Source: a virus. Taken from it: a stretch of 35,928 nt of DNA. The DNA lies in the IMG/VR virus record IMGVR_UViG_3300025842_000306. One strand, written 5' to 3'. The notes under the pieces are model-generated. The model did not search any database. It was not told the origin of the DNA and saw only the letters and a program-made list of their open reading frames with translations. Below are positions 1-35,928 of the stretch, one piece after another. The translations under genes were made by a program, and so were the position numbers. Numbering within the stretch: position 1 is the stretch's first letter; each line of letters begins with the position of its first letter.

Positions 1-85
1 AGGCACAGCGCCGAGGAAGTTAGCGAGGACTATCGCCAAGACGGCGGGAAACTGGGGTGGCTGATGGGGCTCGAACCCACGACAA
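1..85. repeat. att direct repeat, left copy
   Basis: Nt 1-85 equal 35843-35928, except that the AA at 38-39 is AAA at 35880-35882 in the right copy. Confidence 0.9.
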
Positions 86-3053: not shown

Positions 3054-3473
3054 TTATTCCCCTTTTGATAAAAATCTACACAACTCACCCAACCGCGCCG
3101 GGCTGTACATCTCTGCTGCTGGGATGCCTATCGCTTCGGCGCACCATTCGGAGCAGAAATACTTGCTACCGTTTCGCCCGCCTCGGTTGAAGAGCTGGCC
3201 GCGAAACAGGCCGAGCCAGTCGTATGCGCGGCCTTTAGTCTGCTCGAAGAATGCCAGCACCTGCGCGACATCTGCCCAGAGCAGATCGATCACATCCCAA
3301 TTGCCGTTGGTCAGGTCGATCTGCTTGGCGCGCACGCCGCTATCCATCAGGCTCGCCGAGAGGCACACGCCGCATACCACCAGCTCGCAATGCGAATAGA
3401 TCGAGCCCGTCCACCAGCGCGTGATGCGGTTGCCCAGCTTCCCGCGGCCTTTGTAGAGGGCGAGCTGGACCAT
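3054..3473 (-). CDS. Permuted papain-like (NlpC/P60, YaeF/YiiX-type) putative cell-wall amidase
   Basis: His (SIYSHCELVV) precedes Cys (KYFCSEWCAEA), as in permuted NlpC/P60 enzymes. TAATG overlap with the upstream gene. Confidence 0.5.
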   Translation of the reverse strand: MVQLALYKGRGKLGNRITRWWTGSIYSHCELVVCGVCLSASLMDSGVRAKQIDLTNGNWDVIDLLWADVAQVLAFFEQTKGRAYDWLGLFRGQLFNRGGRNGSKYFCSEWCAEAIGIPAAEMYSPARLGELCRFLSKGE

Positions 3474-4021
3474 TACAGCCCCAGCGAGGTGCGCACCTGG
3501 GCGATGAATACGCGCCACGCGGCCACCGCCGCATCCAGCTCGGCTTGCGTGGTTGCAGCACGCATGGTTGATTGCGCGGTAAAGCGGGTGGAGCGCATCG
3601 CCAGCACCGCCGCACGCAGGCCATTCGCGCGGGCGATGATGAGGTCGGCGGATTGCTGGTCGGTGATGCCTGCGGTGGCCGCGTAGTCCGCCACATAGGG
3701 CGATGCCGTGCCGGTGTAGCCCGCCGCCTGAAATGCCAGGGCGGCTTGTTCGGCCTGCTCGTATTCCGGTGCGCGGCCGCCGATGGCGGCGGCATAGATG
3801 GCGTCCACATCGGCGTAGGTTTTATTGATAGCGGAGGTGCGAGCATCCTCCTGTGGAGGCTGTTCAGCGGGCGTCACAACGACCCATGCTCCGTCTTTCC
3901 AAAAGCACCCCTCTATAGTGGGGTTGTATTCTGGCACGGCGAATCCCGCCCTCAGCATCCAGTCCGCTGGGGTGTCGGTTGGGATGTGCTCAAGTGTGTC
4001 CGGATGGTATGCGTCTCTCAT
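3473..4021 (-). CDS. Hypothetical protein, tail-fibre assembly/chaperone-like (182 aa)
   Basis: AGGAG 7 nt upstream of the ATG at 4021. ATGA overlap with the RT stop. The function is inferred mainly from its position after the fibre/DGR genes. Confidence 0.4.
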   Translation of the reverse strand: MRDAYHPDTLEHIPTDTPADWMLRAGFAVPEYNPTIEGCFWKDGAWVVVTPAEQPPQEDARTSAINKTYADVDAIYAAAIGGRAPEYEQAEQAALAFQAAGYTGTASPYVADYAATAGITDQQSADLIIARANGLRAAVLAMRSTRFTAQSTMRAATTQAELDAAVAAWRVFIAQVRTSLGL

Positions 4022-4986
4022 GCTGTGACTCCTATTTTGTTGAGAAGGTTGTATGAATCCGCCCACTGGGCGTGGCCGCGCCAGGATGCGATAAAGCGGC
4101 CAAGCGATAGCTCATCGCCGCGCGCTCGGAATTTGAATATCTTGCGTTTGGCTGCAACCACCGATTGTTTTCGCAGCAGCTTATGCGTCGGCCAGATGCG
4201 ATAGCCAAGCCAGTCCAGCCCTTGCGTGATCTTGCCGATGCTCCACTTTGAGAAGCGCAGGCCGAGCTGTACATCGGAGAACCACTTCAAGCCTTGCTGC
4301 AACACGGCCAACGCCTCGCGGCTGTGAGCGAAAACAACCGTGTCGTCCATGTAGCGCAGCCAAGCCTTGATGCGCAGGGTATGCGTCAGATAGCGGTCGA
4401 GCACATGGCCGTAGACGTTGGCGAAGAGCTGACTGGTGAGGTTTCCGATGGGCAGGCCGCGCCCCGTCTCGGGCAGAAAGGTGGTTATCAGTTCCAGCGT
4501 GGCCGTGCAGCTCACCTTGCGCTTGATCTCGCCATACAGAACCACGCGATCGATGCTGGCGAAATACTTGGAGAAGTCCATCTTGAGCCAGTGCGTGTAT
4601 CCCCGTCGCATAATGGCCTGCGCCTCGATGGCAGCGGTGTGCGTTCCGCGCCCTTTGCGGCAGGCGTAGCTGTTGGGCAGGAAGGTGCGGTCAAATATCG
4701 GCTCGATGACTGCACACAGGGCGTGCTGCACCACGCGGTCGCCGAACGGCAGCGCCGAAATCTCTCGCCGTTTTGGCTCGTTCACAAAAAACAGCGTCGG
4801 CTCAGATGGGCAATAGGTTCCGTTCTTCAGCGCCTCAGAGAGTGCGCGCAGGTTCGCCGCCAGATGCTGCTTGAATTGCAGATGGCCACAGCTATAGCGC
4901 TTGCCCTTCGCTGCCTTCTCGTAGGCGCGATACAGGTTCGGCATGCTAGCGATCTTGCCGATCAGGTTCTTGTGCTTCTTACCCAT
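4018..4986 (-). CDS. DGR-type reverse transcriptase (322 aa)
   Basis: RT motifs are present, including LPIGNLTSQLFANVY (the DGR-typical xGNxxSQ motif) and YMDD. Size and position next to a TR match DGR RTs. Confidence 0.9.
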   Translation of the reverse strand: MGKKHKNLIGKIASMPNLYRAYEKAAKGKRYSCGHLQFKQHLAANLRALSEALKNGTYCPSEPTLFFVNEPKRREISALPFGDRVVQHALCAVIEPIFDRTFLPNSYACRKGRGTHTAAIEAQAIMRRGYTHWLKMDFSKYFASIDRVVLYGEIKRKVSCTATLELITTFLPETGRGLPIGNLTSQLFANVYGHVLDRYLTHTLRIKAWLRYMDDTVVFAHSREALAVLQQGLKWFSDVQLGLRFSKWSIGKITQGLDWLGYRIWPTHKLLRKQSVVAAKRKIFKFRARGDELSLGRFIASWRGHAQWADSYNLLNKIGVTA

Positions 4987-5152
4987 GCTGCCCTCTATGG
5001 TTGTTCAGTTGCAAGTGCGTCTTTCGAGGCTTCCTACTCGACGTTCCCTTGACCGCGTAATGTGTTCGCCGAAGCGGGATGGCGTGGCTGACCATAAAAA
5101 CTGCATGATCTGCATCGGCGGCCTTAACCATCCGAAGCGGGTGAAACTTATC

Positions 5153-5256
5153 GTCACAGGCGGCACGCAACCCAATGTTCCAGTTCGAGTTCCACGGGTA
5201 GTTGTTCCAATTGGAAGCCCGCGAACCGGAGTTCGCGCCGTTCGTGCGCGTGCCGC
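5153..5256 (-). repeat. DGR template repeat (TR), non-coding
   Basis: 104 nt align without gaps to 5673-5776. Eight mismatches, all at plus-strand T, which is A on the transcribed minus strand. The boundary could extend to 5260. Confidence 0.9.
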
Positions 5257-5258
5257 TT

Positions 5259-5639
5259 TTATCCACGTTCACCCCTTGCGGCTCTGGCCTTAATCCAAGC
5301 GCCGAGCATCTTTCCGGTTTCAGCGAGGTGGATACTTGCCACCTCGGCCTGATGCCGACTGATCAACTTGCGCTTGCCGTCCGCCAAAAACCGCACCATG
5401 TATCTCAGATCGGATAAGCCTGCATCAGCCAGATACAGCTTAGAGACTTGTCCAGACTTGCCCGCCTGAGAAAACATTCCTACTTGCTCAAACATCGCGC
5501 CAATGAATCGATCACGTGCCACGTGATGTGTGCGGCGGATGTTGAGCACAATCGGATACATATAATTGATGAAGCCCTCGAAGCGCTCGACGATGGCGAG
5601 CTGCCTCTGGCTGGCGAATTCATCACTTAAAGTCTCCAC
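5259..5639 (-). CDS. avd: DGR accessory variability determinant (Avd-like, 126 aa)
   Basis: A small basic helical protein between the target gene and the TR. GTG start at 5639. Size and position match bAvd. Confidence 0.75.
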   Translation of the reverse strand: METLSDEFASQRQLAIVERFEGFINYMYPIVLNIRRTHHVARDRFIGAMFEQVGMFSQAGKSGQVSKLYLADAGLSDLRYMVRFLADGKRKLISRHQAEVASIHLAETGKMLGAWIKARAARGERG

Positions 5640-5654
5640 GGTCGCTTTCGCTCC

Positions 5655-6965
5655 CTATACAGATTGCAAGTGGTCACAGGCGGCACGCAACCCAAGGCTC
5701 CAGTCCGAGTACCACGGGTAGTTGGCCCAATTGGAAGCCCGCGAACCGGAGCCCGCGCCGTTCGTGCGCGTGCCGCCTAGCAGCACCCGCGCCAGACCGT
5801 ATGTGCCGAAGGTGTAAGTCTCGCCGCGCTGCGAACCTGCTGCACCTGTATTGCCGTTGACTTGCTTCCATGACCCTGCTGGGCTGGCCGCTTCGCGGTA
5901 GAAATTGGAGTCTTGACCCCATACCCAATGGTGGCCTGATGCCTGCTCGATACCGTACTTGCTGGTGTAGCCTGCATTGCGCTGCGTGGTCGGGTAGGTC
6001 GCGGCAGTGGCGTCGATGGACTGATTTTCGGTCACGCCATAAGCGGCCTCTACAAACTCGCTCTCCCACATCAGGCGCTTCTTATTAGCTCTTGCAAGCT
6101 CGTTCGCCACCCACCAGTTCAGCGATGGGTAGGTAGTCACGCCGTTGCCGCCAAACGCGGCCGGAATCTTCGGCAAGACGGTGTGCGACGCGATGTTCGT
6201 GCCTGATTTGCTGGTGCCGTTAGTGGCGGTATCGGTTGAGCACAGGTAGATGTCCACCCATACCTGCCCGCCCACCAAAGCCATACCGCGCGGGTCGGAT
6301 GCCGCTGGGCGGAACTTTAAGTCCCAGATGGAATACTTGTTGATACCAGCGATGTCATCTACATCGCCCTGCACCCATATCTTGCCGTTGCCCGTGGTGG
6401 CGAACGAGCCGCCTGCCACCGTCGTGCCCGCAGCGACTAGGCCGTAGTGAAAGCCGCCGATCTTGCGCCAATTGCCCGCGCCTGGCGCATTGACGAAATC
6501 GGTTGTGGCTTGAATCGTTGCATCGTCCTTCACCCAGATGGCGTAATCCGTGCCGCCTGTGAGGGCTGGCATGGTGACGGGTGTATTCGATGTGTAGGAT
6601 ACAACAGTGCCAACCACCTCCACCTTTGTTCCGGCCTTGATCGAAAGTGTATCCGCAGCTGTTTTGGCGAAGGCGGGGTTTAGGTGGTCTGTTTTATAAT
6701 ATAAACCAGCGGAGCTTATTTGAGTTGATAGCTCTGCCGCGATCACGTCGCCCATCTCTTCCCAGGCATCGTTCGCCATGTTGCGCCGCCATCGCGTGCC
6801 GTCGGTCAGCGTCACTTCCATACCGGCGACGAGGTTGGTGGCGGGCAGTGATGCGCCGCTGAATTTGCTTTGCAACGCAAGCAGCGCTGCCTTGGTTATT
6901 GTCCCAAGCCCAGCAGGCGTCGTAACGGCTGTATCTATCGTGTTGGTATCCCATATCTGTGACAT
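5655..6965 (-). CDS. Tail fibre / receptor-binding protein, DGR target (Mtd-like, C-terminal C-type-lectin-type VR)
   Basis: 436 aa. AGGAGG RBS directly after the J-like stop. The C-terminal VR matches the TR. The WxxYPW...GLR.ACD pattern is typical of CLec-fold DGR targets. Confidence 0.85.
   Translation of the reverse strand: MSQIWDTNTIDTAVTTPAGLGTITKAALLALQSKFSGASLPATNLVAGMEVTLTDGTRWRRNMANDAWEEMGDVIAAELSTQISSAGLYYKTDHLNPAFAKTAADTLSIKAGTKVEVVGTVVSYTSNTPVTMPALTGGTDYAIWVKDDATIQATTDFVNAPGAGNWRKIGGFHYGLVAAGTTVAGGSFATTGNGKIWVQGDVDDIAGINKYSIWDLKFRPAASDPRGMALVGGQVWVDIYLCSTDTATNGTSKSGTNIASHTVLPKIPAAFGGNGVTTYPSLNWWVANELARANKKRLMWESEFVEAAYGVTENQSIDATAATYPTTQRNAGYTSKYGIEQASGHHWVWGQDSNFYREAASPAGSWKQVNGNTGAAGSQRGETYTFGTYGLARVLLGGTRTNGAGSGSRASNWANYPWYSDWSLGLRAACDHLQSV
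5673..5776 (-). repeat. DGR variable repeat (VR), encoding the last ~40 codons of the target gene
   Basis: Counterpart of the TR. It encodes ...GTRTNGAGSGSRASNWANYPWYSDWSLGLRAACD, followed by HLQSV and the stop. Confidence 0.9.
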
Positions 6966-6974
6966 TTTTCCTCC

Positions 6975-9900
6975 TTAATATCCAAAAACTTCCACGTCCA
7001 CCATGCCAGCTTTGGCAGCCAGCACATCGTCGTAGACATCGATATCCACGCCGTTTATGGTTTTGTTTGAAATGGTGAAGCGGTCGCCTGCGAGCCCATT
7101 CAGTAGATTGACTTTTATGGTATTGACTGCAATGAGCGGCGGGTCAAAAGCCAGCGACAGGCCGCCAGATGGCACGATTTTGTTTGCGAAGCGCAATACT
7201 TTGTCCGGCACATCGATAGTCACAATGAAATGATCGAGTTTTATCTGATAGCCCGGTTGAGCAACAAAACTGGCGCGCAATTTGTAATGACGTAGCGTAC
7301 GCAGGCCTGCCGCGAAGGGCTGCCATCCAGTCCAGGTGATTCCATCGATCGAGGTGTTAATCTCGTATAAAGATGCCACCACGCCGACCGGCCCTTCAAG
7401 CGTCCAATTGTTAGAATAATTAATAAGCGGCAGCACCAACGAATCCAGCGATTGGCCAAGCGTTAAGATAAATATCTTCGGCAATATAAATAGATTGCAA
7501 TTAAGCACCCCCCCAATGTCATGCGGGTCGGTGATGTAGCTGCCCGACGAGATGATCCCGCCTTCGCTCATAAGGCTGCTCGGATAGGTATCGAGAGAAA
7601 GAGGTAGGTCGTCCAGCACATTGGAGTAACCCAGCGTCAGCGCCGCCCCATCAATCACCATATCAGTCAGCGTGCCGCCCCATCCATAGGTGGCGTCGTC
7701 GTCGGTCAGCACCACGTTGATGTTGCTGTTCGCGGCGATGATGCTTTGTGCGGCCGTGGTTGAGTAATTCGGCACAGGGGCGACGGTGTCGAATGCCTTA
7801 ATAAGGTATGTGCCGCCTTGTGGAGAGCGGATGGACAGCGCGGTGCGCGGGGTGTTGCCGACCGCTACGGCAGTGTCCCAGCTGCTCCCCAAGCGGATCT
7901 CGTAACCCGCCACGTCCAGCTCATCATTACCGTGCCAGCTGAAGTACAAATCGCTTCCGTTGCGCGTAGCCGTAAAACCTTTCACAGTCTGCGGCGGCGC
8001 TAGCTTGCCGGTGACTGTATGGTTGATGTATTGCCAAATAGATGACGGCGAGACGCCGAGGTTGGAATAGGGTTTGAGCGTTAAGGCGTAAGCCTGCCCG
8101 CTGACAACGCGCTCGCGCGTGAAGGTACCACTGGTCGATGAGCCTATTAATGTGCCGCCCTCGACTACATCAACCCGCTCCGTATTGATGGTGTCGAAAA
8201 TGATGTCCAGGTTCACCTCGATGTTGCCGCCCGCGGCCAGCACCATCTGCTCTTCGACGGCGAAGCGGGTGATGCGCGGCAGCGGCGCGGCCGCCGATAC
8301 ATCCTGCGTCTCCAGCGCGGGAAGGCCGCTATCCAGCCCGTACAAGCTGGCGTTGTATTCGATGAGCGAGAGTTTGGCGCGCTGATCGCCATCCCGCTGT
8401 ACATCCAGTACTAAAAATTCTTTTATTGCCTTGCCTGTCTCGCCGAGCGCCCACACGTCATAGATCGACGGCGCGGAGGGAAATGCCTCGGAAACATCCA
8501 CCGCCGAGACGGTGCCGGCAGTGGTGGTGATGGTGCGCGTGACCAACGTATCGTCAGCCAGGCGCAGCTTCAGCTCGTAGGCGATGCCTGATTCGAGTGA
8601 CACGCTCTGGTCGAGCTGCAAGCGGGTGGTAGTGCTGCCTGATGCGGCGCGGCCGCCGACCCCCCATCGGGTGATATCGTTCTGCACCCAAATCAAGTCG
8701 CCCGCTGTGCAGGCGAGTGCGTCAATATCCACACCAAGGATGGCAGTGCGCTTGAGCAGCTCGTTGCGCTTGAGTCGGTAAAACGCTTCGCGCCATGCTT
8801 GCGAGGCGCGAGTGATACCGCGCAGGCCGATCTGTATGCGCTGGGCAGCGGTTTCGCTAATGGCGGCGTTAACCACGGTCAGTGTGTCGCGCGCGTAATC
8901 CTGCGCGGCGTTCGTGTATCCAACTTCGATGCTGGCGGCGCGGTCCTGCATGGGCAAGAAAGTCTCATTGAAGCTGTTGACGTTTGTGTTCCCGACTGTA
9001 AAAAGCTGCGCGGGTGTCGCGCGCGCATCGTCCACTACAATAAATATTTTAGTGCCACGCATGACGAGCTGCGCGCGGGCGATGGCGCAGACTTCCAGCG
9101 CGGCTTCCCACAGGCTGGTGGCCGTGTCGAACACGCCGTCGAAATAACAGCGCGCCTCGGCGCCACCATGCCCGTCCGTGACTAAGGTGTCGCAGAAATC
9201 CGCCCAATTCATAAAACTGGACAGATCGAGCCGCGAGGGGTCGAGCCCATCGTAGCGCACCACCGCATGGCTGTTGTTCAGCACTGGTTGGGTCAGAATG
9301 TCCCAGCAGATCCACGCCGGGTTGCGGCTAAACTGGCTGACCCATGCTGAGCCGTTCCAGACGCGCACGATGGCGCAATCTGCCAAACAACTAAAATTCA
9401 TTGATCCTGATATCTGGTCTGTGGCTAGCGCATCCACCGCCGCTAAAACGGTGCGAGGATATTGGAAGTCGTCGTACATCACTTCGTTTATTTCGGCCAG
9501 ATACAGGTCGTCGCCGTAGCGCGTGTCGGTCTGGTCTGCGCTGAGGTTGGTGCAGCGCACTTTGTAGCGGGTGCCACGGTCGAGATTATCGATGCGCAGC
9601 GTGCGGCGGATGGGTTGCTGGCTTTTCCCCGTAATGGTGATGGAATCGTACACCTCGCTGGTCACTTCGACGTTCCCGGATAGCCAACGCCACCTATATA
9701 TCCCGGACACATCGCCGTCTATATGATCTGTTCGTATCACCGATCCGGCGCTAGCCTCTTGCCAGACAGAAATATTTTCACGGCTAACACGTTTGTATAT
9801 AAAGCGCCCTAGCGACCACCTGCCGGGATATGAGGTGATAACAGAGCGCGCCTCAATCTCTACGAATTGCCAACTGCTGCCACCGTCCGCAGAGATTTCG

Positions 9901-10817
9901 ACCGAGGTGTACACCGACACCGCATCCAGACCGCCCGCATCGTTGGCATACCAAAGCCCGCTCGGACAGACCAACACGATCTCCAGTGCGTTGTAATCGT
10001 CGCCCACGGTGTCGCGCGACACCGGACTGCCGGCGACCACCTTGGAGCCGATGTTTTGGTTCTGCCGGGTGTCGTTGAAGGCGGGGATGATGCTCTGATC
10101 CAGCTCGCCCATGCGGGCAGTGATGGTGACGCCCTGGTAATAGCCGACCGGCTGGTTATTGAGTTTGAAGTCGGACAGCGCGCTGTACGGGCCTTGACCA
10201 AGGTCGACCAACAGATGCGCGATTTGGCTGAAGCCGGTGTCGCCAGTGGATTCAATATATCCGGCAATGATATTTCCGAATAGTTTGTTGCGGCCGTAGG
10301 CGCGATGGATGGCCCCGCCCGGGGTTTGGGTGGTCGCTTGAGACCATGCGTAGGCCTGTGAGACATCGGACGACTGGCGGCCAGGGAGAGAGGGTTTGCT
10401 GGGGGCCAACAAAGCGCCGATAAGCGCAGATCCAAGTATCGAGTAGCCGGCGGTTAGCGCCAGCAGCCCAAAGCTACCTGCACCACCAAACGCACCGCCT
10501 GTCATGATGGTTGTGTATCCGGCTGCGTACGGCGCAAAGGCGATGACCGCAATCGTAAGGATCACACCCAGCGTCTCGCCATCATGCACCGCCGGCATCA
10601 CCACCATCTGCTCACCGGGTCGCAGCGCGCGCGATGCCCATGCGCCCGGCGCGATCATCTCGCCATCGATAGCGACTTGCAGCGCTGAGTGGCAAGGGAA
10701 ATGCGTGGAAATTAATTTTGAAACAGTGACATCGCCCAACAGAGATACCAGCCGTTCGTCGCGCTGGCGGCGGTCAAACGGGTTGCGCACGATGACTAAT
10801 GAGCTTTGTGGAGTCAT
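6975..10817 (-). CDS. Tail tip / host-specificity protein (lambda J-like) fused to an N-terminal lambda I-like module (1280 aa)
   Basis: The N-terminal ~200 aa show a ubiquitin-like start, a Gly/hydrophobic tract, LLAPSKP and AYGRNKLFGNIIAG, resembling lambda gpI. The rest is a long J-like beta-rich protein. ATGA overlap with the K-like gene. Confidence 0.8.
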   Translation of the reverse strand: MTPQSSLVIVRNPFDRRQRDERLVSLLGDVTVSKLISTHFPCHSALQVAIDGEMIAPGAWASRALRPGEQMVVMPAVHDGETLGVILTIAVIAFAPYAAGYTTIMTGGAFGGAGSFGLLALTAGYSILGSALIGALLAPSKPSLPGRQSSDVSQAYAWSQATTQTPGGAIHRAYGRNKLFGNIIAGYIESTGDTGFSQIAHLLVDLGQGPYSALSDFKLNNQPVGYYQGVTITARMGELDQSIIPAFNDTRQNQNIGSKVVAGSPVSRDTVGDDYNALEIVLVCPSGLWYANDAGGLDAVSVYTSVEISADGGSSWQFVEIEARSVITSYPGRWSLGRFIYKRVSRENISVWQEASAGSVIRTDHIDGDVSGIYRWRWLSGNVEVTSEVYDSITITGKSQQPIRRTLRIDNLDRGTRYKVRCTNLSADQTDTRYGDDLYLAEINEVMYDDFQYPRTVLAAVDALATDQISGSMNFSCLADCAIVRVWNGSAWVSQFSRNPAWICWDILTQPVLNNSHAVVRYDGLDPSRLDLSSFMNWADFCDTLVTDGHGGAEARCYFDGVFDTATSLWEAALEVCAIARAQLVMRGTKIFIVVDDARATPAQLFTVGNTNVNSFNETFLPMQDRAASIEVGYTNAAQDYARDTLTVVNAAISETAAQRIQIGLRGITRASQAWREAFYRLKRNELLKRTAILGVDIDALACTAGDLIWVQNDITRWGVGGRAASGSTTTRLQLDQSVSLESGIAYELKLRLADDTLVTRTITTTAGTVSAVDVSEAFPSAPSIYDVWALGETGKAIKEFLVLDVQRDGDQRAKLSLIEYNASLYGLDSGLPALETQDVSAAAPLPRITRFAVEEQMVLAAGGNIEVNLDIIFDTINTERVDVVEGGTLIGSSTSGTFTRERVVSGQAYALTLKPYSNLGVSPSSIWQYINHTVTGKLAPPQTVKGFTATRNGSDLYFSWHGNDELDVAGYEIRLGSSWDTAVAVGNTPRTALSIRSPQGGTYLIKAFDTVAPVPNYSTTAAQSIIAANSNINVVLTDDDATYGWGGTLTDMVIDGAALTLGYSNVLDDLPLSLDTYPSSLMSEGGIISSGSYITDPHDIGGVLNCNLFILPKIFILTLGQSLDSLVLPLINYSNNWTLEGPVGVVASLYEINTSIDGITWTGWQPFAAGLRTLRHYKLRASFVAQPGYQIKLDHFIVTIDVPDKVLRFANKIVPSGGLSLAFDPPLIAVNTIKVNLLNGLAGDRFTISNKTINGVDIDVYDDVLAAKAGMVDVEVFGY

Positions 10818-11203
10818 GTGCGCCGCCCCGTGTAGCGATAAAACCCAGCGATACGCTCCGCCCATTCAGGTGCATCCAGCCGCTGGACGGTAACGCCACG
10901 CCGCGAGCTCGTGTGAACGAAACGCCCACCTTCCAGCACCATGCCGATGTGCGACATCCATGGGCCGATGCGCAACACGACCGCGCAGCCGACCTCTGGT
11001 GTGGCAAGCGGCTGCCATTCTGCGGCAGCAGCGGCGTGGATGTCTGCCTCGCGCTGGGCCAGGTCGTCCGGTGTGGGATGGTTGGGGATGGGTGTGCCGC
11101 GCCGGCGACATAACTCGGCGAACAAACCGAAGCAATCGTACGCCTCAGGGCCGCGCGCACCGGCTTGATATCTAGCAGCCATCAGGTCGTTGAGTTTTAT
11201 CAT
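10814..11203 (-). CDS. Tail assembly NlpC/P60 peptidase (lambda K-like)
   Basis: AYDCFGLF (Cys) ... MSHIGMV (His) ... FVHTS. ATGA overlaps at both ends. Confidence 0.75.
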   Translation of the reverse strand: MIKLNDLMAARYQAGARGPEAYDCFGLFAELCRRRGTPIPNHPTPDDLAQREADIHAAAAAEWQPLATPEVGCAVVLRIGPWMSHIGMVLEGGRFVHTSSRRGVTVQRLDAPEWAERIAGFYRYTGRRT

Positions 11204-20948: not shown

Positions 20949-22906
20949 CACCACCCCTTCACTGAATAACCACTACGTCGTTTTGCCGCAGGTCTCTGCG
21001 GTACAAGTTGTTCTTCTCGTTTGTCTTGATTAATTGGCTCCACCTTCACAATCATTGCATCGCCTTCCAGCGTGACGGCGAGACGCTCCCAATACTTCGG
21101 ATCCGGCCTGCCCGTCCGTCCACGCCCGATGTTGATGTCGCGGTGCTGGCCGATGGCCCAGGCATACACCATCGTGTCGAGCGGTTCGTTACGCTTGAAG
21201 CGCGCGCCGATGCGGGGGATGTAGCGTTTTTTCTCGGGGTCGTACACTTCAGAGAGCAGACCGTCGTAGTAGGTGTCTTCCAGCCTTTGTGGGAAGTTGA
21301 AGGTGCGCTCGGTCTGTTGGCGTTCTCCGTCGGCGGCGAGGTGGGCGAAGATGAAGTCCTTGCAGTGTTCGGTGCCGACGTTCCACACCATGTAGCCGTG
21401 GCGGATGACTTTGCCGGTGCGGGTTTTGGTGGGGCTGCTGCCGCTTTGGGCAATGGCGCGACCGATGCGGTTGGTGGCGCCCTGCACGGAATAGACGGGG
21501 ATGCGCAGGCTGGGGCGCATGACGAAGTTTTTCACCTCTTCAGTGCGGTGTCCCCGGCTGTCTATTCCGGCGGCGCGTATCTTCATTTCTTTGCCGTAGC
21601 TGTTGACCAGCGGGCGGTGCAGGAAGGCTTCCAGTTCGTTCCACACGTCTGCACCGGTGGTGTCGCCCTGTATCTCGGTGAAGTCGATCACCCACAGGCG
21701 CGCGGGGCCGTGTTCTTCGGCGGGTGCGCCCCAGCCCAGCAGGGTGATGGCTAGCCATTTGTCTTGAGTGTCGATGCCGACGGTGAGGGCCAGCACGCCG
21801 GGCGGGATGATGCCTTGCTGGTATTCGCCCGCGCGCGTGGCCAGCTCGTGCGTCTTGAGCTTTTCGGATTGGTCTTCCCACGCTTCGCCGAGGTTTTGGT
21901 TGATGAAGCTCTTGAGCTGCACCGGCTCTTTGTGGATGCGCTTGAAGTGGATCACCAGATCGAGCCAGGACGGGCCGAGGCCGATGGGCGCGTAGAGTGC
22001 GCTGATGTGGTAGCTGCGCACGCGGCGCTCGGGGTGTTCCGGGATCCAGATGCCGCCTTCGAGCATGGCGGGCTTGTGGTGCTCTTCTATGATGCAGCCC
22101 TGCTCGCAGATGTATTCGGCTGCGGTCAGCGTGATGTTGGCTTTGACGTGGCTCCATTGCAGCACCTGCCGCTCGCCGCAATGCGGGCAGGCGACGTGGT
22201 AGCGGCGCTGGTCGCCATCCTCAAAGCCGCGCTCGATCAGCGATGCACCCTTAAGCGTGGGTGTGCTGGCGAACAGCAGCTTGTGGCGCACAAAGGCTTT
22301 CACGCGCGAGCGCGCCAGCTCCACCGGGTCGCCTTCGTCGCCGATCTGCGCGGGGAAGCGGTCGAGATCATCCATCATCAGGCAGCGCACGGACTTTTGC
22401 GCGTAGCTGTTGGGCGAGTTGCCGCCGGCGAGGAACAGGATGCCGCCTGGGAAGTCGATCAGTTCTTTGCTGTGTGCCGCATCGCGGCTGCGCAGCCCGC
22501 CCAGCATGTCGCGGATGCACGGCGTATCGGTCAGCAGCGGGTTGAGCTTCTGCACCTTCCAGGTGTCGCGCGCTTCCAGCGTCGGCATGAGCACCATCGC
22601 AGGGCCCGGCGCGTAGTCCATGGTGTAGCCCAGCCAGTTCACCGACATCTCGGTGACGCCCACCTGCGACGACTTCATGATCCACACCTCGCGCACGGAC
22701 GAGTGCAACGACAGGCAATCCATGATCTCGCGCAGCATCGGGTTGCGCGCCGTGCGCCAGCGCCCCACCTCACCACTGCCCTTGCTCGACAACACGCGAT
22801 GGTTGTCCGCCCACTGCGACACCGTGAGCCGACCGCGCGGGCGCACTGCGCGGGCGGCAGCGGCGGACATGACTTGCATTGTGGATTGGGTTAGGGGGGG
22901 GTTCAT
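20948..22906 (-). CDS. terL: Terminase large subunit (lambda gpA family)
   Basis: ...LTVSQWADNHRVLSSKGSGEVGRWRTARNPMLREIMD...SSQVGVTE is typical of Terminase_GpA. The ATG at 22906 forms an ATGA overlap with the upstream gene. Confidence 0.9.
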   Translation of the reverse strand: MNPPLTQSTMQVMSAAAARAVRPRGRLTVSQWADNHRVLSSKGSGEVGRWRTARNPMLREIMDCLSLHSSVREVWIMKSSQVGVTEMSVNWLGYTMDYAPGPAMVLMPTLEARDTWKVQKLNPLLTDTPCIRDMLGGLRSRDAAHSKELIDFPGGILFLAGGNSPNSYAQKSVRCLMMDDLDRFPAQIGDEGDPVELARSRVKAFVRHKLLFASTPTLKGASLIERGFEDGDQRRYHVACPHCGERQVLQWSHVKANITLTAAEYICEQGCIIEEHHKPAMLEGGIWIPEHPERRVRSYHISALYAPIGLGPSWLDLVIHFKRIHKEPVQLKSFINQNLGEAWEDQSEKLKTHELATRAGEYQQGIIPPGVLALTVGIDTQDKWLAITLLGWGAPAEEHGPARLWVIDFTEIQGDTTGADVWNELEAFLHRPLVNSYGKEMKIRAAGIDSRGHRTEEVKNFVMRPSLRIPVYSVQGATNRIGRAIAQSGSSPTKTRTGKVIRHGYMVWNVGTEHCKDFIFAHLAADGERQQTERTFNFPQRLEDTYYDGLLSEVYDPEKKRYIPRIGARFKRNEPLDTMVYAWAIGQHRDINIGRGRTGRPDPKYWERLAVTLEGDAMIVKVEPINQDKREEQLVPQRPAAKRRSGYSVKGW

Positions 22907-23751
22907 TCGCACAGCCCGAACTTAGATTCGCAGCTCGGCCTTTCTTCCACGATCTTGATAAAGTCCTGTTGGCGACCACCGCGCGCAGTCGTGCACCATT
23001 CCAGCACATCATCCATAGTGTTGATCGCCATTCCAGGAACCATTGGCGCGAAATATGTGCGCCCGGTGTTGCGCTCATAGGCGCGTATCTTTTGGATTTC
23101 TTCGGGAAAGCGTTGCGACCAAAGCAGGATGTCTCCCTTCCCGCTATTGATGCACGGAGCGCAACCAACTCGACCAAACCCCAGCTTGTAGAGTGGGTTG
23201 TATTCCTCGCCGCGCGCTGTCACGTACTCGAAACACATCTTCTTGCTCCAGTCGGCCAGCGGATGGTTTACATAGCAATCAAAGAACTTATCGAACTCGC
23301 GGAAAGGCGTGTTTTTTCTGGCATCCGATTCGTCTCGGCGCAGCCCGGTGTATCTCTCGTAGTCGTCAGATACATTCTCATCAACCCAACGGCGAAGCGG
23401 ATTCAGTTTCAATATCTCAGTGCAGAATTGAGCCTTGCGTGATGGAGCTCTACCCTTGACCTTCATCATTCCCTCGAAGGTCAGTTCGTCTGTGCTGTTG
23501 AACCCCCTCGTCTCTGCAAACCGCTCCGTTTTCCAGAGATCGGCATAAGTGCCCATTACCTGTACCACAGGGAATACGTTTTCCGAATACCAGTTGATGA
23601 ACGCTTCGGTTATCGGGCTTTCGTTCTTCCCTGCCTTTGAGTTGAGCAGAATGATCTCGTCGCCCGGGTGCCGGTTTCGCACATGCAGTGCAGCCGCTTG
23701 CGAATCAATTCCCCCGGAAAAACCAACAATGCGGATCACGCTTTCCCCCAT
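22903..23751 (-). CDS. PP-loop ATP pyrophosphatase / PAPS-reductase-family protein (DndC/IbrA-like fold)
   Basis: The N-terminal IVGFSGGIDSQAAAL is the SGGxDS PP-loop. Cysteine pairs GCAPC and CESKFGLCE follow. An alternative GTG start at 23739 would form a GTGA overlap with TerS. Confidence 0.75.
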   Translation of the reverse strand: MGESVIRIVGFSGGIDSQAAALHVRNRHPGDEIILLNSKAGKNESPITEAFINWYSENVFPVVQVMGTYADLWKTERFAETRGFNSTDELTFEGMMKVKGRAPSRKAQFCTEILKLNPLRRWVDENVSDDYERYTGLRRDESDARKNTPFREFDKFFDCYVNHPLADWSKKMCFEYVTARGEEYNPLYKLGFGRVGCAPCINSGKGDILLWSQRFPEEIQKIRAYERNTGRTYFAPMVPGMAINTMDDVLEWCTTARGGRQQDFIKIVEERPSCESKFGLCE

Positions 23752-24265: not shown

Positions 24266-25642
24266 TCACCCAGGGAAGTGCTTGCCGGTTACCGCATGAA
24301 TCGCGCGCTGTCCGGTGTATTCCTGCCAGCGACGGATGATGACGTCGACGTAGTTCGGCGACAGCTCCGACAGGCGCGCTTTCATTTTTAGGCGCTCCGC
24401 TGCCATGAGCGTTGAACCCGAGCCGCCGAAGCAATCCAGCACGATGTCCCCGCTCTGCGCGCTGTTGCGCAGCATGCGCTCGATCAGCGCGACCGGCTTC
24501 ATGGTTGGATGGACGTCGTTGCGCCTTGGCTTGTCCTCGACGATCACTGAGGTCAGCAGCTCCTCGATTTCCGCCTTGCCCTCCACCACGAATATGCCCC
24601 CCCCCAGGTGCAATTCCCACTTTCCGTCTGCACGCTTGACGAACGGTGAGCCATCGCCCATGTGCTCGATGGTGGTTTTTTTACGCCCTCCGAACCAGCG
24701 GTGCGCGCCGCCAATCTTCCATCCGTACAGGATCGGCTCGTGGATCCACTGGTAATCCGACCGCCCGAGCACTAGCGTGTTCTTGCGCCAGATCACAACG
24801 CCGGACAGCTTGAATCCGTTGTTCAGCATTTCGCGGGTGAAGTTGGAGCGCTCGGTCTCGGCGTGGGCGACGTAGATGGCCGCTCCCGGCTTCATCACAG
24901 TGAAGGCGGCGCGGTAGAAGTCGCCGAGAAACTGTGCAAAGCTGGCGTCATCCATGTCGTCGTTGAGAATGCGCGAGGTGTTTCTCTGCGTGCGTCCGTT
25001 GTCTCCGTTATTCAGGAACTCTGCCTTGTCTCCATAGGCGACGTTGTACGGCGGATCAGTCCAGCAGACGTCTGCCATCTCGCTATCCATCAGCGCGGCC
25101 ATCGCGGTCGGCGTGGTGCAATCCCCGCAGATAAGGCGGTGCATCCCAAGATTCCAGACGTCACCCAGCACGCTGACCGGGTCGGTCACTGGGGGTGGAC
25201 AATCTTCCGGGTCTTTGCCTGACACTTCGTCGGCGATGCCGAGCATGGAATCCAAGTCCTCGTTGCTGAAACCGAGCAAGTCCAGCGCGAATCCATCCTG
25301 CTGCAGCTCCTTGATTTCGGCAGACAGGATGTCGTTATCCCACCCCGCCTGCAGCGCGAGCTGGTTGTCCGCGATCACGTAGGCCTTTTTCTGGGCCTCT
25401 GTCAGCCAATCGACCCGTAGGCATGGTACTGACCCCACCCCGATGCTTTGCGCGGCCAAAACGCGCCCGTGGCCAGCCACAATGCCGCCCTGCCCGTCAA
25501 TCAGCACCGGGTTGGTGAAGCCGAACTCCTGAATGCTGCGCGCGATCTGGGCGATCTGCTCTTTTGAGTGGGTGCGGCTGTTGCGGGCGTAAGGCACAAG
25601 CGCGGTGACGGCCAGCATTTCGATCTTGTCTTGCACTTTCAT
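24266..25642 (-). CDS. ParB-like nuclease domain fused to an N6-adenine/N4-cytosine DNA methyltransferase
   Basis: The ParB-N part reads LVPYARNSRTHSKEQIAQIARSIQEFGFTNPVLID..GIVAGHGRVLAA. The MTase has motif IV TDPPY before motif I LDCFGGSGST (beta-class order). AAGGAG RBS at the ATG at 25642; the longer tracked ORF looks like a spurious extension. Confidence 0.85.
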   Translation of the reverse strand: MKVQDKIEMLAVTALVPYARNSRTHSKEQIAQIARSIQEFGFTNPVLIDGQGGIVAGHGRVLAAQSIGVGSVPCLRVDWLTEAQKKAYVIADNQLALQAGWDNDILSAEIKELQQDGFALDLLGFSNEDLDSMLGIADEVSGKDPEDCPPPVTDPVSVLGDVWNLGMHRLICGDCTTPTAMAALMDSEMADVCWTDPPYNVAYGDKAEFLNNGDNGRTQRNTSRILNDDMDDASFAQFLGDFYRAAFTVMKPGAAIYVAHAETERSNFTREMLNNGFKLSGVVIWRKNTLVLGRSDYQWIHEPILYGWKIGGAHRWFGGRKKTTIEHMGDGSPFVKRADGKWELHLGGGIFVVEGKAEIEELLTSVIVEDKPRRNDVHPTMKPVALIERMLRNSAQSGDIVLDCFGGSGSTLMAAERLKMKARLSELSPNYVDVIIRRWQEYTGQRAIHAVTGKHFPG

Positions 25643-25905
25643 TTGATTCTCCTTTTCGATTCTTGTTCGCGTTCTGCTTTTGTGCGGATGACCATGTCGG
25701 CCAGGCTGATGCTGTTGGTGACGGGTTTGAATGGGGTGCCGACTTCGTGTTCGCCTTCGGTGGCGTGAAACCAGTCTGGGAAGCCTTGCATGCCGAGGCG
25801 GATGCTGTTGTTGATGCTCTCGGTGCCGAAGGCTTCGCGGAGCTGGTCTATCCAGGCGGCGGTGAGCGGCATGGCTTGGCGCATGGGTTTGGTTTTTTCG
25901 GTCAT
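25639..25905 (-). CDS. Hypothetical protein (88 aa)
   Basis: ATGA overlap with the methyltransferase start. The ATG at 25905 lies 5 nt after the last iteron. No SD sequence seen. Confidence 0.5.
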   Translation of the reverse strand: MTEKTKPMRQAMPLTAAWIDQLREAFGTESINNSIRLGMQGFPDWFHATEGEHEVGTPFKPVTNSISLADMVIRTKAEREQESKRRIK

Positions 25906-25910
25906 GATGG

Positions 25911-26169
25911 GTGTTCCGCAAGTGTTCCGCTTGTTCCGCTTCGTTAAAATCGCTGAACACCAATGGCGGCGGGGGTGTTCTGCTTGTTCCGTATGTTCCG
26001 CGAAAAAATGTACGCGTGAGAGAGGTGATTTATTTACTCTGCGGCTTTGTTTATGCGCGCGCGCGCGGGCGCGTTTCCACGGAACAAGCGGAACACAGAG
26101 AACACCCCCGCGCTTATTGGCTTGCGTGGCTTTTGGAGTTACGGAACAAGCGGAACACTTGCGGAACAC
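25911..26169. repeat. Iteron array: about 12 copies of (G)TGTTCCGC in two inverted clusters around an A/T-rich plus alternating-GC core
   Basis: 25911-25938 (gtgttccgcaagtgttccgcttgttccg) is the exact reverse complement of 26142-26169. An inner pair lies at 25971-25992 and 26079-26109. The core holds tgatttatttactc and gcgcgcgcgcgcgggcgcg. Confidence 0.85.
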
Positions 26170-34974: not shown

Positions 34975-35928
34975 CCAGCTGGGAAGAAGCCGCCCTGCAG
35001 TGGGTCGAAGAACACGCCATCCACAAGGCCAGCTACGAGACCGACCGCGTCCGCTTGATATGGCTCAACGAGAGACTGGCCGACAAGCCGATCACCCACA
35101 TCACCACCGACGCACTGCTCGCCATCCGCAAGGAATTGATGCAGACGCGCGCCGCCTCCACCGCCAACCGCTTCCTCGCCATCGTCTCCGCCGTGCTCAA
35201 CTACGCGCACGCCAAGGGGCTGCTGGCTGGCGTGCCGAAGATACCCTACCTGCCGGAGAACAACGACCGCTTCCTGTGGATCACCCGCGCACAGGCCGAC
35301 CGCTTCACCGCCGCCCTGCCTGATCACCTGTCCGCCATGACCAGACTCGCGCTGTGCACCGGCCTGCGCCGCGCCAACGTCACCGGCCTGATGTGGGAGA
35401 ACATCGACATCGAGCGCAAGATCGCATGGATCTGGCCAGACGAGGCCAAGGCAGGCAAAGCGATACCCGTCCCGCTCAACACAGACGCGATCGCGGTGCT
35501 AAAGGAACGATCCGAGCAAAAAAAGAAACTCAAGAAGATCACCATCGCCGATGCCCGCTATGTTTTTACGTTCCGAGGGAAGAAGATCGAGCGCACCACC
35601 ACCAAGGCGTGGTACACCGCCGCTACAGCCGCCGGCATCGATCCGGCATTTACCTTCCACGGCCTACGCCACACCTGGGCAAGCTGGCACGTAATGAGCG
35701 GGACGCCGCTGACGGTACTGAAGGAACTGGGCGGCTGGGCCAGCCTGGACATGGTGATGAAATACGCCCACCTCGCACCCGGCTACGTGGCCAACTACGC
35801 CGAGAACATCACCAGCGCCGCGCAGGCCCGTGGGTGCAATTCTAGGCACAGCGCCGAGGAAGTTAGCGAGGACTATCGCCAAGACGGCGGGAAACTGGGG
35901 TGGCTGATGGGGCTCGAACCCACGACAA
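34809..35928 (+). CDS. int: Tyrosine integrase; the 3' end is not reached within the window
   Basis: Absent from the ORF track because no stop codon occurs before the window ends. The N-terminus is MSLYKRGRIYWCKW...ETTGTAD. Catalytic-region motifs are TGLRRANVTGLMW, HGLRHTWASWHVMSG and LGGWASLDMVMKYAHL. The ORF reads through the att repeat, antisense to the tRNA. Confidence 0.9.
   Translation, partial: MSLYKRGRIYWCKWTIRKTEIRETTGTADHQAAQEYHDRRRAEIWREQKLGDVRIASWEEAALQWVEEHAIHKASYETDRVRLIWLNERLADKPITHITTDALLAIRKELMQTRAASTANRFLAIVSAVLNYAHAKGLLAGVPKIPYLPENNDRFLWITRAQADRFTAALPDHLSAMTRLALCTGLRRANVTGLMWENIDIERKIAWIWPDEAKAGKAIPVPLNTDAIAVLKERSEQKKKLKKITIADARYVFTFRGKKIERTTTKAWYTAATAAGIDPAFTFHGLRHTWASWHVMSGTPLTVLKELGGWASLDMVMKYAHLAPGYVANYAENITSAAQARGCNSRHSAEEVSEDYRQDGGKLGWLMGLEPTT
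35843..35928. repeat. att direct repeat, right copy
   Basis: Matches 1-85 with one extra A (AAA at 35880-35882). Confidence 0.9.
35896..35928 (-). tRNA. tRNA-His, 3' part only in the window (probably the intact copy continuing beyond the window)
   Basis: Same T-arm, acceptor and CCA sequence as 53-85. The left copy is demonstrably truncated, so the functional gene should be this one. The 5' half cannot be seen here. Confidence 0.6.

Follow-up and report, generated by a model that had tools for sequence, protein, structure and literature searches.

The prototype of the diversity-generating retroelements (DGRs) is that of the short-tailed Bordetella phage BPP-1, a Rauchvirus, in which mtd, avd (bbp7), the template repeat (TR) and brt, the gene for the reverse transcriptase (RT), follow one another, and in which the sequences IMH (initiation of mutagenic homing) and IMH* differ at few positions only. 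Here we analyzed a stretch of viral DNA of 35,928 nucleotides (IMG/VR record IMGVR_UViG_3300025842_000306), called the window throughout, and the DGR cassette found on its minus strand between positions 4018 and 6965. We consider it very probable that this cassette is a functional BPP-1-type DGR that diversifies the C-type-lectin (CLec) tip of an Mtd-like tail-fibre protein, in a temperate lambda-like siphovirus that probably infects a member of the Gallionellaceae.

Phage DGRs of the Mtd type were already catalogued by Wu et al. in 2018 (PMC5758913), where they account for 12 of 372 target genes. With the Mtd-domain 'category a' CLec1 phage DGRs of that survey, and with the Rfam family RF03022, our locus shares the Mtd domain, a variable repeat (VR) in the C-terminal CLec region of the target, flanking phage genes, and a spacer RNA scoring above the Rfam gathering score; there is no categorical difference, and the source here is environmental metagenomes (JGI, ENA) and not a cultured host. 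Mtd-like tail proteins also occur in the long-tailed phages P12026 of Marinomonas and S-CBS1 and S-CBS3 of Synechococcus, which we compared by target protein alone and whose Mtd homologues, 33-37% identical over about 80% of our target, are more distant than that of BPP-1. The latter, in fact, together with its siblings, gave the best matches to both the RT (51%) and the target (39%) when 50,697 phage records were searched at the protein level, while a megablast of the cassette against the same records returned no match, so that relatives emerged from protein-level searches only.

Organization of the cassette and its repeats

The list of open reading frames (ORFs) holds four consecutive minus-strand genes coding for proteins of 1296, 436, 126 and 322 amino acids, and the last three of these, with the non-coding elements between them, form the cassette:

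5655-6965, minus strand: target gene, Mtd-like tail-fibre protein and putative receptor-binding protein, 436 amino acids (ORF and Mtd homology)
5673-5780, minus strand: VR, target residues 396-431 of 436 (alignment with TR)
5658-5695, minus strand: IMH-like 3' end of VR (alignment with the BPP-1 VR end)
5640-5655, minus strand: post-VR hairpin (position of the BPP-1 hairpin)
5259-5639, minus strand: avd (accessory variability determinant), 126 amino acids, GTG start
5264-5275, minus strand: avd-3' strand of the predicted 'cPRT Stop' duplex (GGGGUGAACGUG), with its partner in the spacer at 5076-5086
5153-5260, minus strand: TR, with 25 adenines and eight in-frame AAY codons
5147-5157, minus strand: predicted initiation site (alignment with BPP-1)
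5011-5138, minus strand: DGR spacer RNA (Sp), Rfam RF03022
4018-4986, minus strand: RT, 322 amino acids

The order mtd-avd-TR-spacer-brt is that of BPP-1, with the same strand logic. An earlier note, made from the sequence alone, had proposed a complete DGR in BPP-1 order on the minus strand, and all of its parts could be located, each of them homologous to its namesake in BPP-1: the 436-residue fibre-like target ending in a VR, the 126-residue Avd-like protein and the 322-residue RT, in which the DGR motif (IGNLTSQLFANVY) and YMDD are both present. The TR was said to start at the avd stop codon, and it does open in the last two A's of the avd TAA, abutting the stop as in BPP-1. The spacer of 166 nucleotides (nt) given in that note corresponds to the distance from the end of the TR/VR homology (5153) to the ATG of the RT (4986); by BPP-1 conventions, however, the functional TR reaches about 6-17 nt further, so that the spacer proper is shorter than 166 nt, and we would shift the emphasis accordingly: the TR as defined by homology ends at 5153, yet RNA pairing with the primer strand is predicted to continue to about 5147. 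The homologous TR measures 108 nt here and 134 nt in BPP-1. The cassette lies directly after the gene for the J-like protein, whose ORF spans 6975-10865, and the sequence signs of the translational chaining claimed for it were found at both ends, with TAAGGAGGAAAAATG after the J stop codon and GCATGA at the other end, where the RT stop overlaps, through ATGA, the start of the gene that follows (182 amino acids, 3473-4021).

This stretch contains a single family of direct repeats. Positions 5153-5256 and 5673-5776 form a pair of 104 nt with 92% identity, and every one of the eight mismatches falls on a TR adenine, although only 21 of the 104 positions are A; on the coding strand, the downstream copy (TR) has A at these sites and the upstream copy (VR) has G, C or T. 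Extending the repeat by four bases (AAAA in TR, CTAG in VR) yields the 108-nt pair TR 5153-5260 and VR 5673-5780, where all 11 mismatches (11/11) sit at TR adenines while adenine makes up 25 of the 108 TR bases, an outcome with a chance of (25/108)^11 = 1e-7. No second VR, remote target or further TR copy was found in the window, which indicates a single target.

The TR carries eight in-frame AAY codons (residues 402, 405, 412, 414, 415, 419, 421 and 423), each able to yield 15 amino acids with no stop codon possible, five codons with a single A (397, 399, 401, 416 and 424), and an AAA at 396; a TR scaffold of AAC codons is also seen in BPP-1. The repertoire of the tip, of the same order as that of BPP-1 Mtd, would thus be about 15^8 x 4^5 = 2.6e12 peptides, and counting codon 396 raises it to about 5e13. 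The adenine in the last GAC, at 5154, is located 3' of where cDNA synthesis is predicted to start, and no copying of it is to be expected.

Reverse transcriptase and Avd

The RT aligns over its full length with bRT, the BPP-1 enzyme (PDB 8ub7), at E 4.2e-102 and with 51% identity in a global alignment, whereas the next-best PDB matches are group II intron RTs at E 1e-18 (best 8.8e-19) and retron-type RTs at 1e-15. It matches Pfam RVT_1, and its motif 4, of the form [LIV]GxxxSQ, reads IGNLTSQ at residues 180-186 and is followed by YMDD at 212-215. All residues highlighted in the cryo-EM study of bRT are kept (K29, F66, R74, I76, D137, I180, G181, Q186 and the YMDD box), with D137, I180, G181 and Q186 of our RT corresponding to D138, I181, G182 and Q187 of bRT, and the catalytic D137, D214 and D215 are conserved along with the adenine-mutagenesis residues, so that the alignment bears out the expectation of an intact active site. 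In the cryo-EM structures, R74 and I181 of bRT touch the incoming nucleotide and the template base (bioRxiv 10.1101/2023.10.23.563531), and their equivalents here are R74 and I180. Judged by these alignments, the RT belongs with the DGR RTs and is closest to bRT, a placement made through database matches and curated cut-offs.

That the RT might stem from another retroelement or from a defence system (group II intron, retron, DRT/Abi), the 104-nt repeat being an unrelated duplication, is a view to which we give next to no credence. RT-domain matches to models of all three kinds do exist, as could be expected if that were the case, and several phage records label homologues of this protein as 'retron-type' or 'group II intron' RT. 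These matches, however, are weak and far under the curated NCBIfam cut-offs: 123.5 bits against a cut-off of 300 for group II (TIGR04416), 38.8 against 235 for retron St85 (NF038233), 33.8 against 200 for Drt3a, and 24 against 550 for Drt5, and the match to bRT is better by about 80 orders of magnitude. Furthermore, the only Rfam family found is Phage_DGR, with no group II intron or retron RNA in the window at the gathering threshold, the mismatches of the repeat fall solely on adenines, and the neighbours of the RT gene are avd and tail genes. The assignment of Avd itself is straightforward, with Pfam bAvd at 9.6e-27, NCBIfam NF033474 DivGenRetAVD at 95.5 bits (cut-off 80), and PDB matches to Bbp7 of BPP-1 (4dwl, E 3.6e-29, about 45% identity) and to 8ub7_B.

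Variation of the VR in public metagenomes

The earlier note had named adenine-restricted heterogeneity of the VR as the trace that an active element should leave in population data, and such heterogeneity was found when we looked for it in public metagenome contigs and protein clusters. The exact RT protein is present on 16 public metagenome contigs. The phage is contained in the JGI samples 3300025845, 3300025007, 3300025875 and 3300005237, in the ENA assemblies ERZ27293344, ERZ27293375, ERZ27293395, ERZ27293396 and ERZ27293414, and in SRR6240786. Ten of these were fetched, and the 108-nt TR is 100% identical in all of them (11 sequences with the window); the VR, present on nine of the ten, occurs together with the window in four nucleotide alleles that differ from the TR at 11-16 A sites. 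For the three alleles other than that of the window, 44 of 46 mismatches are at a TR A, and two are at non-A sites. Two contigs illustrate this directly: L003 (JGI 3300025845) equals the window over 11,874 nt save for 16 differences, all of them within 5673-5780, and L008 has 13 of its 14 differences in 5.9 kb located inside the VR. Three of the ten contigs also start within the VR or no more than 125 nt from it (L003 at window position 5891, L008 at 5903, and L007 at 5760, inside the VR), a pattern expected from VR microdiversity breaking assemblies.

Proteins tell the same story. The target belongs to a 90%-identity protein cluster with 34 members, and the 15 members listed contain 13 distinct VR peptides; two members of 436 residues, P0004 and P0005, differ from the window protein in the VR only, by 7 and 9 residues, respectively. 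Within the same 15 members, all eight AAY codons vary, and codons lacking A are invariant save for four cases, three of them in more divergent members. Member P0009 carries, beside the VR and outside the TR adenines, the substitution V436I. Mismatches between TR and VR are likewise biased to A in relatives across the clade. This footprint indicates that the DGR has been active in nature, its TR remaining constant while the VR changes.

One allele of 16 substitutions is carried by seven contigs (L001, L003, L004, L005, L006, L009 and L010) that represent two different phage backbones: L003 is 100% window-like, while L001, away from the core that the two backbones have in common (see below), matches the window at 95% identity. 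Such sharing could be due to selection of this allele, to recombination, or to contigs joined chimerically across the identical core.

Spacer RNA and predicted priming structure

Rfam places Phage_DGR (RF03022) at 5011-5138 on the minus strand with 75.3 bits (gathering score 50; E 2.7e-11) and a match to model positions 1-127 of 127. When the region was aligned with that of BPP-1 (locus L018 in our numbering), the spacer core proved to be conserved, and the structural elements could be carried over from the cryo-EM study of the BPP-1 ribonucleoprotein (RNP; bioRxiv 10.1101/2023.10.23.563531), with the stop duplex taken from BPP-1 avd369-379:Sp59-70:

5112-5138, minus strand: predicted Avd-binding stem-loop (BPP-1 RNP mapping)
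5089-5098, minus strand: predicted primer strand, with the priming adenosine 5089 in GGTCAGCC
5076-5086, minus strand: predicted spacer strand of the stop duplex, pairing with avd 5264-5275
5065-5075, minus strand: GC-UUCG-GC plus AA (BPP-1 RNP mapping)
5012-5051, minus strand: predicted RT-binding stem (BPP-1 RNP mapping)

According to this mapping, TR strand 5147-5156 pairs with the primer strand 5089-5098 as the template:primer duplex, and G5157 corresponds to the base that is templated first in BPP-1, TR G117. The role of Sp A56 as the priming adenosine of BPP-1 is known from Handa et al. 2018 (PMC6182149); this base sits in GGTCAGCC, and since the same octamer is present in the window, the priming A is predicted at 5089. 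The hexamer GGTCAG (GGTCGG in two loci) was found at the matching distance from the RT start in 38 of 38 related loci examined. Also common to both phages are the GC-UUCG-GC plus GAA element and the Avd- and RT-binding stems. As for differences, the loop of the Avd-binding stem is G-G-U[UAAG]G-C-C-like here and UACG in BPP-1, and the TR:Sp duplex is formed here by ACGAUAAG with UUUUAUGGU, where BPP-1 has CCCAUCACC with GGUGGU...; pairing is therefore kept with different bases, which is covariation.

We then counted pairs on an alignment of 30 distinct relatives with RT identities of 47-95%. The transferred structure has standard pairs in 84.1% of its cells, and sliding the partners by 1-3 columns lowers this share to 28-43%; compensatory double changes are seen in 27 of the 38 pairs, and none of 500 shuffles reached any of the five measures observed. 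These figures are conservative, as the register of the alignment is imperfect between sub-clades, whose bulges differ. Covariation is seen for helices 2 and 3 at the initiation site, and in the 30 relatives the cPRT Stop duplex has compensatory changes at eight of its ten pairs and is recovered in part by RNAalifold. A BPP-1-type spacer RNA architecture is, as a result, supported by covariation. Run on the whole alignment of 404 columns, RNAalifold yielded fragments only, and a helix that it proposed between columns 269-272 and 288-291 was rejected, since it clashes with the known template:primer duplex; minimum-free-energy folds of single spacer sequences were not used either, because they do not reproduce the cryo-EM architecture even for BPP-1.

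The 3' end of the VR and the post-VR hairpin

TR and VR have in common a 21-nt block free of A (TTGGGTTGCGTGCCGCCTGTG, VR 5675-5695). Past it, the VR continues with CCACTTGCAATCTGTA, unlike the TR, and the two are almost wholly different after GTGAC, in contrast to the IMH and IMH* of BPP-1. The VR side, CCACTTG..., matches the core of the BPP-1 IMH, CTGTGACCAC(C/T)TG being common to both phages, and the 3' end of the VR can thus be described as IMH-like.

For DGRs, a hairpin or cruciform located 4-34 bp downstream of the VR, with a GC-rich stem of 7-10 bp and a 4-nt 5'-GRNA loop, was described by Guo et al. in 2011 (PMC3240598). Our candidate, GGGAGC-GAAA-GCGACC (5640-5655), begins 17 nt past the end of the VR homology, sits where BPP-1 has GCGGGGCC-GAAA-GGCCCCGC, and, overlapping the stop codon of the target, takes up all of the space from there to the GTG start of avd. 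The candidate resembles the BPP-1 hairpin in its GAAA loop, a tetraloop of the GRNA type, and in its position directly after the target stop; the stem, however, would consist of four Watson-Crick pairs plus a tandem G·A (5643/5644 with 5651/5652) here, compared to eight G:C pairs in BPP-1. In 14 of 23 distinct relatives the core GAGC-GNAA-GCGA (two Watson-Crick pairs plus the tandem G·A) is invariant, and the two to four outer pairs covary (GG:CC, AC:GT, GC:GC, TC:GA, GCGG:CCGC and GGCG:CGCC), while the remaining relatives have perfect stems of 6-8 bp. Based on this conserved core and on the covarying outer pairs, we regard the post-VR hairpin as probably real, although in a variant form. In one relative (L023, at about 3310-3350) the hairpin motif occurs in tandem duplication (CGAGCGCAAGCGAGCGCAAGCGAG).

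Target protein

Residues 89-433 of the target are homologous to BPP-1 Mtd, including its CLec domain, with 39% identity (PDB 1yu4, E 1.1e-52). All the Mtd structures 1yu0-1yu4 and 2iou match at E of about 1e-52, and the alignment runs through the Mtd VR to the C-terminal ...CDHL. The protein also matches Pfam mtd_2nd (1.2e-14) and PHROG 11262, a tail protein family (2e-88). Its N-terminus differs from that of Mtd, and the first 40 or so residues are specific to this phage backbone. We infer from the homology that the VR lies in the ligand-binding region of the CLec fold.

Is the element functional?

The steps by which this DGR would operate can be laid out by homology to BPP-1 for the first four, and the fifth is the one whose footprint is seen in the sequences. 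A transcript spanning the 3' end of avd, the TR and the spacer would fold around the RT and a pentameric Avd, with 5112-5138 bound by Avd and 5012-5051 by the RT. The spacer strand 5089-5098 would pair with TR 5147-5156, allowing A5089 to prime cDNA in cis opposite G5157. The TR would then be copied faithfully except opposite adenines, where any base might be inserted, until the duplex of avd and spacer (5264-5275 with 5076-5086) brings synthesis to a halt close to the stop codon of avd. Finally, the mutagenized cDNA would replace the VR (5673-5780), guided by the A-free IMH-like homology and by the GAAA hairpin at 5640-5655, and the TR would stay unchanged. The expectation that this phage can hypermutate its fibre tip is thus supported by anatomy, homology and the footprint of VR alleles.

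Several points weigh against such a reading and should be acknowledged. The stem of the hairpin is weak (-1.4 kcal/mol by nearest-neighbour rules, z = -0.19), much weaker than that of BPP-1, where homing is crippled once the 8-bp stem loses 2 bp (PMC3240598). Substitutions at non-A sites do occur, at VR position 11 of L002 (C to T), at VR position 96 of L008 (T to C), and as G425V in P0009; these may have arisen by ordinary mutation, or the RT may on rare occasions err at bases other than A. All VR alleles are consensus sequences of metagenome contigs and, because a core of 2.3 kb is identical in two phage lineages, the linkage of a VR allele to a given backbone may have been created by the assembly. 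For the target, the AlphaFold2 model built on an alignment of the 15 cluster sequences is unusable (mean pLDDT 30.2, pTM 0.20), and the CLec fold is hence assigned from sequence homology to the Mtd crystal structures alone. Lastly, a receptor-binding role for the target is one that we infer from Mtd homology and gene position only.

Some of these observations would also fit a DGR that was recently inactivated, or 'frozen', in which retrohoming has stopped and the VR alleles are standing variation recombined among related phages. Contigs that are identical over 5.9-11.9 kb and differ (almost) only at the A sites of the VR point to very recent change instead, and 13 VR peptides on near-identical scaffolds would be hard to obtain from recombination alone. 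Decay does occur in this clade, given the RT-deleted remnants present in related prophages (L015, L017 and L012), and both the weak stem of the hairpin and the recurrence of one VR allele on the two phage backbones could be taken as signs of it; in our cassette, however, no ORF is broken, none of the functional RT residues checked has been lost, the RNA elements are complete and covary, and the TR is 100% conserved. A frozen cassette is therefore very unlikely in our judgement, and a functional DGR remains the reading that we strongly favor.

Module exchange and relatives

A second phage lineage, represented by contigs L001, L002, L004, L005 and L010, carries the cassette after a Big_2 protein of 1011 amino acids and not after J, with a target of 529 or 530 residues compared to 436 here. 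The comparison of the window with these contigs and with L006 and L009 showed that 4154-6479 (2.3 kb) is 100% identical between lineages except for the VR; this core begins within the target, of which it includes the C-terminal two thirds, and extends through avd, TR and spacer into the RT, most of which belongs to it. The lineages diverge at 6480-6844 and are unrelated further upstream. An identical core combined with differing N-termini suggests that the DGR is exchanged as a module whose N-terminal adaptors are swapped. We tentatively advance, as a possibility that falls somewhat short of an even chance, the twofold proposal that the DGR core is a plug-in module exchanged among co-occurring phages with non-homologous tail tips, and that this clade uses a non-canonical recognition hairpin with a tandem G·A. 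If the part on the hairpin were true, the rule of a '7-10 bp GC stem' drawn from BPP-1 would not be general.

The remnants mentioned above come from metagenome-assembled genomes (MAGs) assigned to Burkholderiales, Polaromonas and Gallionellaceae (L015 4554-6290, L017 4392-6290, and L012 6001-6746). In these decayed cassettes target and avd are kept and the RT is cut to its last 30-40 codons, L012 having only RT residues 125-322; L017 retains the TR, which is missing from L015 along with the 3' end of avd. The tfa-like gene follows in all three, and their VRs are frozen. Another relative, L021 (IMGVR_UViG_3300038704_000019), carries, some 3 kb downstream of its DGR and at 7982-8818 on the minus strand of the locus, another RT gene of divergent sequence, with 29% identity to the window RT over residues 12-268.

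Neighbouring genes and the role of the fibre

The two genes that flank the cassette are as follows:

6975-10865, minus strand: J-like central tail fibre or tip attachment gene, 1296 amino acids, directly upstream of the target
3473-4021, minus strand: tail-fibre-assembly-like (tfa-like) gene, 182 amino acids, overlapping the RT stop (ATGA)

The 1296-residue protein matches Pfam FNIII-A_GpJ (6.6e-19) and Phage-tail_3, and PHROG 31, 'central tail fiber J' (3e-136). For the 182-residue protein the matches are PHROG 8258, 'tail fiber assembly protein' (1.9e-12), and PHROG 8983 (3.5e-17). This gene has no counterpart in BPP-1, and no similarity of its product to Bbp4 and Bbp2 of that phage was seen. 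When the gene after the RT was compared by tblastn in L011, L013 and L020-L048, the N-terminal 50 or so residues were found to be kept directly behind the RT in the whole clade, including members with an RT identity as low as 54%, with the remainder of the protein varying. The DGR is thus placed between a fibre gene and a fibre-assembly-like gene, and the tfa-like protein could be a chaperone for the diversified fibre. Phage lambda has the side-fibre pair stf-tfa, and the DGR here is in an equivalent position.

That arrangement lends some weight to the possibility that the DGR is active but that the Mtd-like protein is an accessory side fibre, with J making the essential contact, so that diversification would tune adsorption or host range marginally without switching tropism. 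The phage does have a full-length homologue of lambda J, its tfa-like gene after the target mirrors stf-tfa, and relatives attach the same target core to a different tail protein (Big_2, 1011 amino acids). Mtd, however, is the tropism determinant in BPP-1 (PMC5758913), and selection on binding is suggested by how strongly the VR has diversified in the population. We consider an accessory role less likely than not, though far more probable than the other alternatives; the present data agree with a primary and with an accessory fibre alike, and either role is compatible with the functional DGR proposed here.

Phage genome and host

Window positions 1-85 and 35844-35928 form an exact terminal direct repeat of 85 nt, and contig L003 crosses the junction of the window ends, which tells us that the window represents a genome of about 35.8 kb that was assembled as a circle. 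An integrase gene (386 amino acids in L003) straddles the artificial ends, starting at about 34809 on the plus strand and wrapping past 35928. PHROG and Pfam matches reveal the complete layout of a temperate siphovirus, with its modules in this order:

First: primase; ParB-methyltransferase; PAPS-reductase-like; large terminase; portal; protease-capsid fusion
Then: tail terminator; major tail protein; tape measure; minor tail proteins; J; target-avd-TR-RT; tfa-like; endolysin; integrase

The phage is therefore a lambda-like temperate siphovirus (J, tape measure, major tail protein), unlike BPP-1. As to side observations, three genes, all on the minus strand, look accessory: the PAPS-reductase-like gene (22903-23751), which adjoins the terminase; the gene for the ParB-nuclease/DNA-methyltransferase fusion of 565 amino acids (24266-25963); and, in the lysis region, a gene (3054-3518) whose product of 154 amino acids matches PHROG 1128 (an 'enoyl-CoA hydratase-like' moron).

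The host is probably a member of the Gallionellaceae, because the closest genomic relatives of the RT are found in a Gallionella sp. MAG (86%) and in a Gallionellaceae MAG (88%, partial). In L002, a related prophage adjoins bacterial genes. No tRNA genes, and hence no tRNA-linked att site, were found in the window, and our literature search gave no paper on DGRs in Gallionella.

Significance

This cassette is a canonical example of a thoroughly characterized family of DGRs, and what is known of DGRs in general is unchanged by it. Its value lies rather in adding an environmental relative of BPP-1, whose host is probably an iron-oxidizer of the Gallionellaceae, to the very small set of Mtd-type DGRs, with proteins that can be read against solved structures. 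About 30 natural relatives also lend comparative support to the cis-priming RNA architecture seen by cryo-EM in BPP-1, including the priming adenosine and the stop duplex. With many VR alleles on an otherwise identical genome, these phages offer a convenient natural system for the rate and selection of tip diversification, in which a phage may re-target its putative receptor-binding protein through some 10^12 to 10^13 tip variants.

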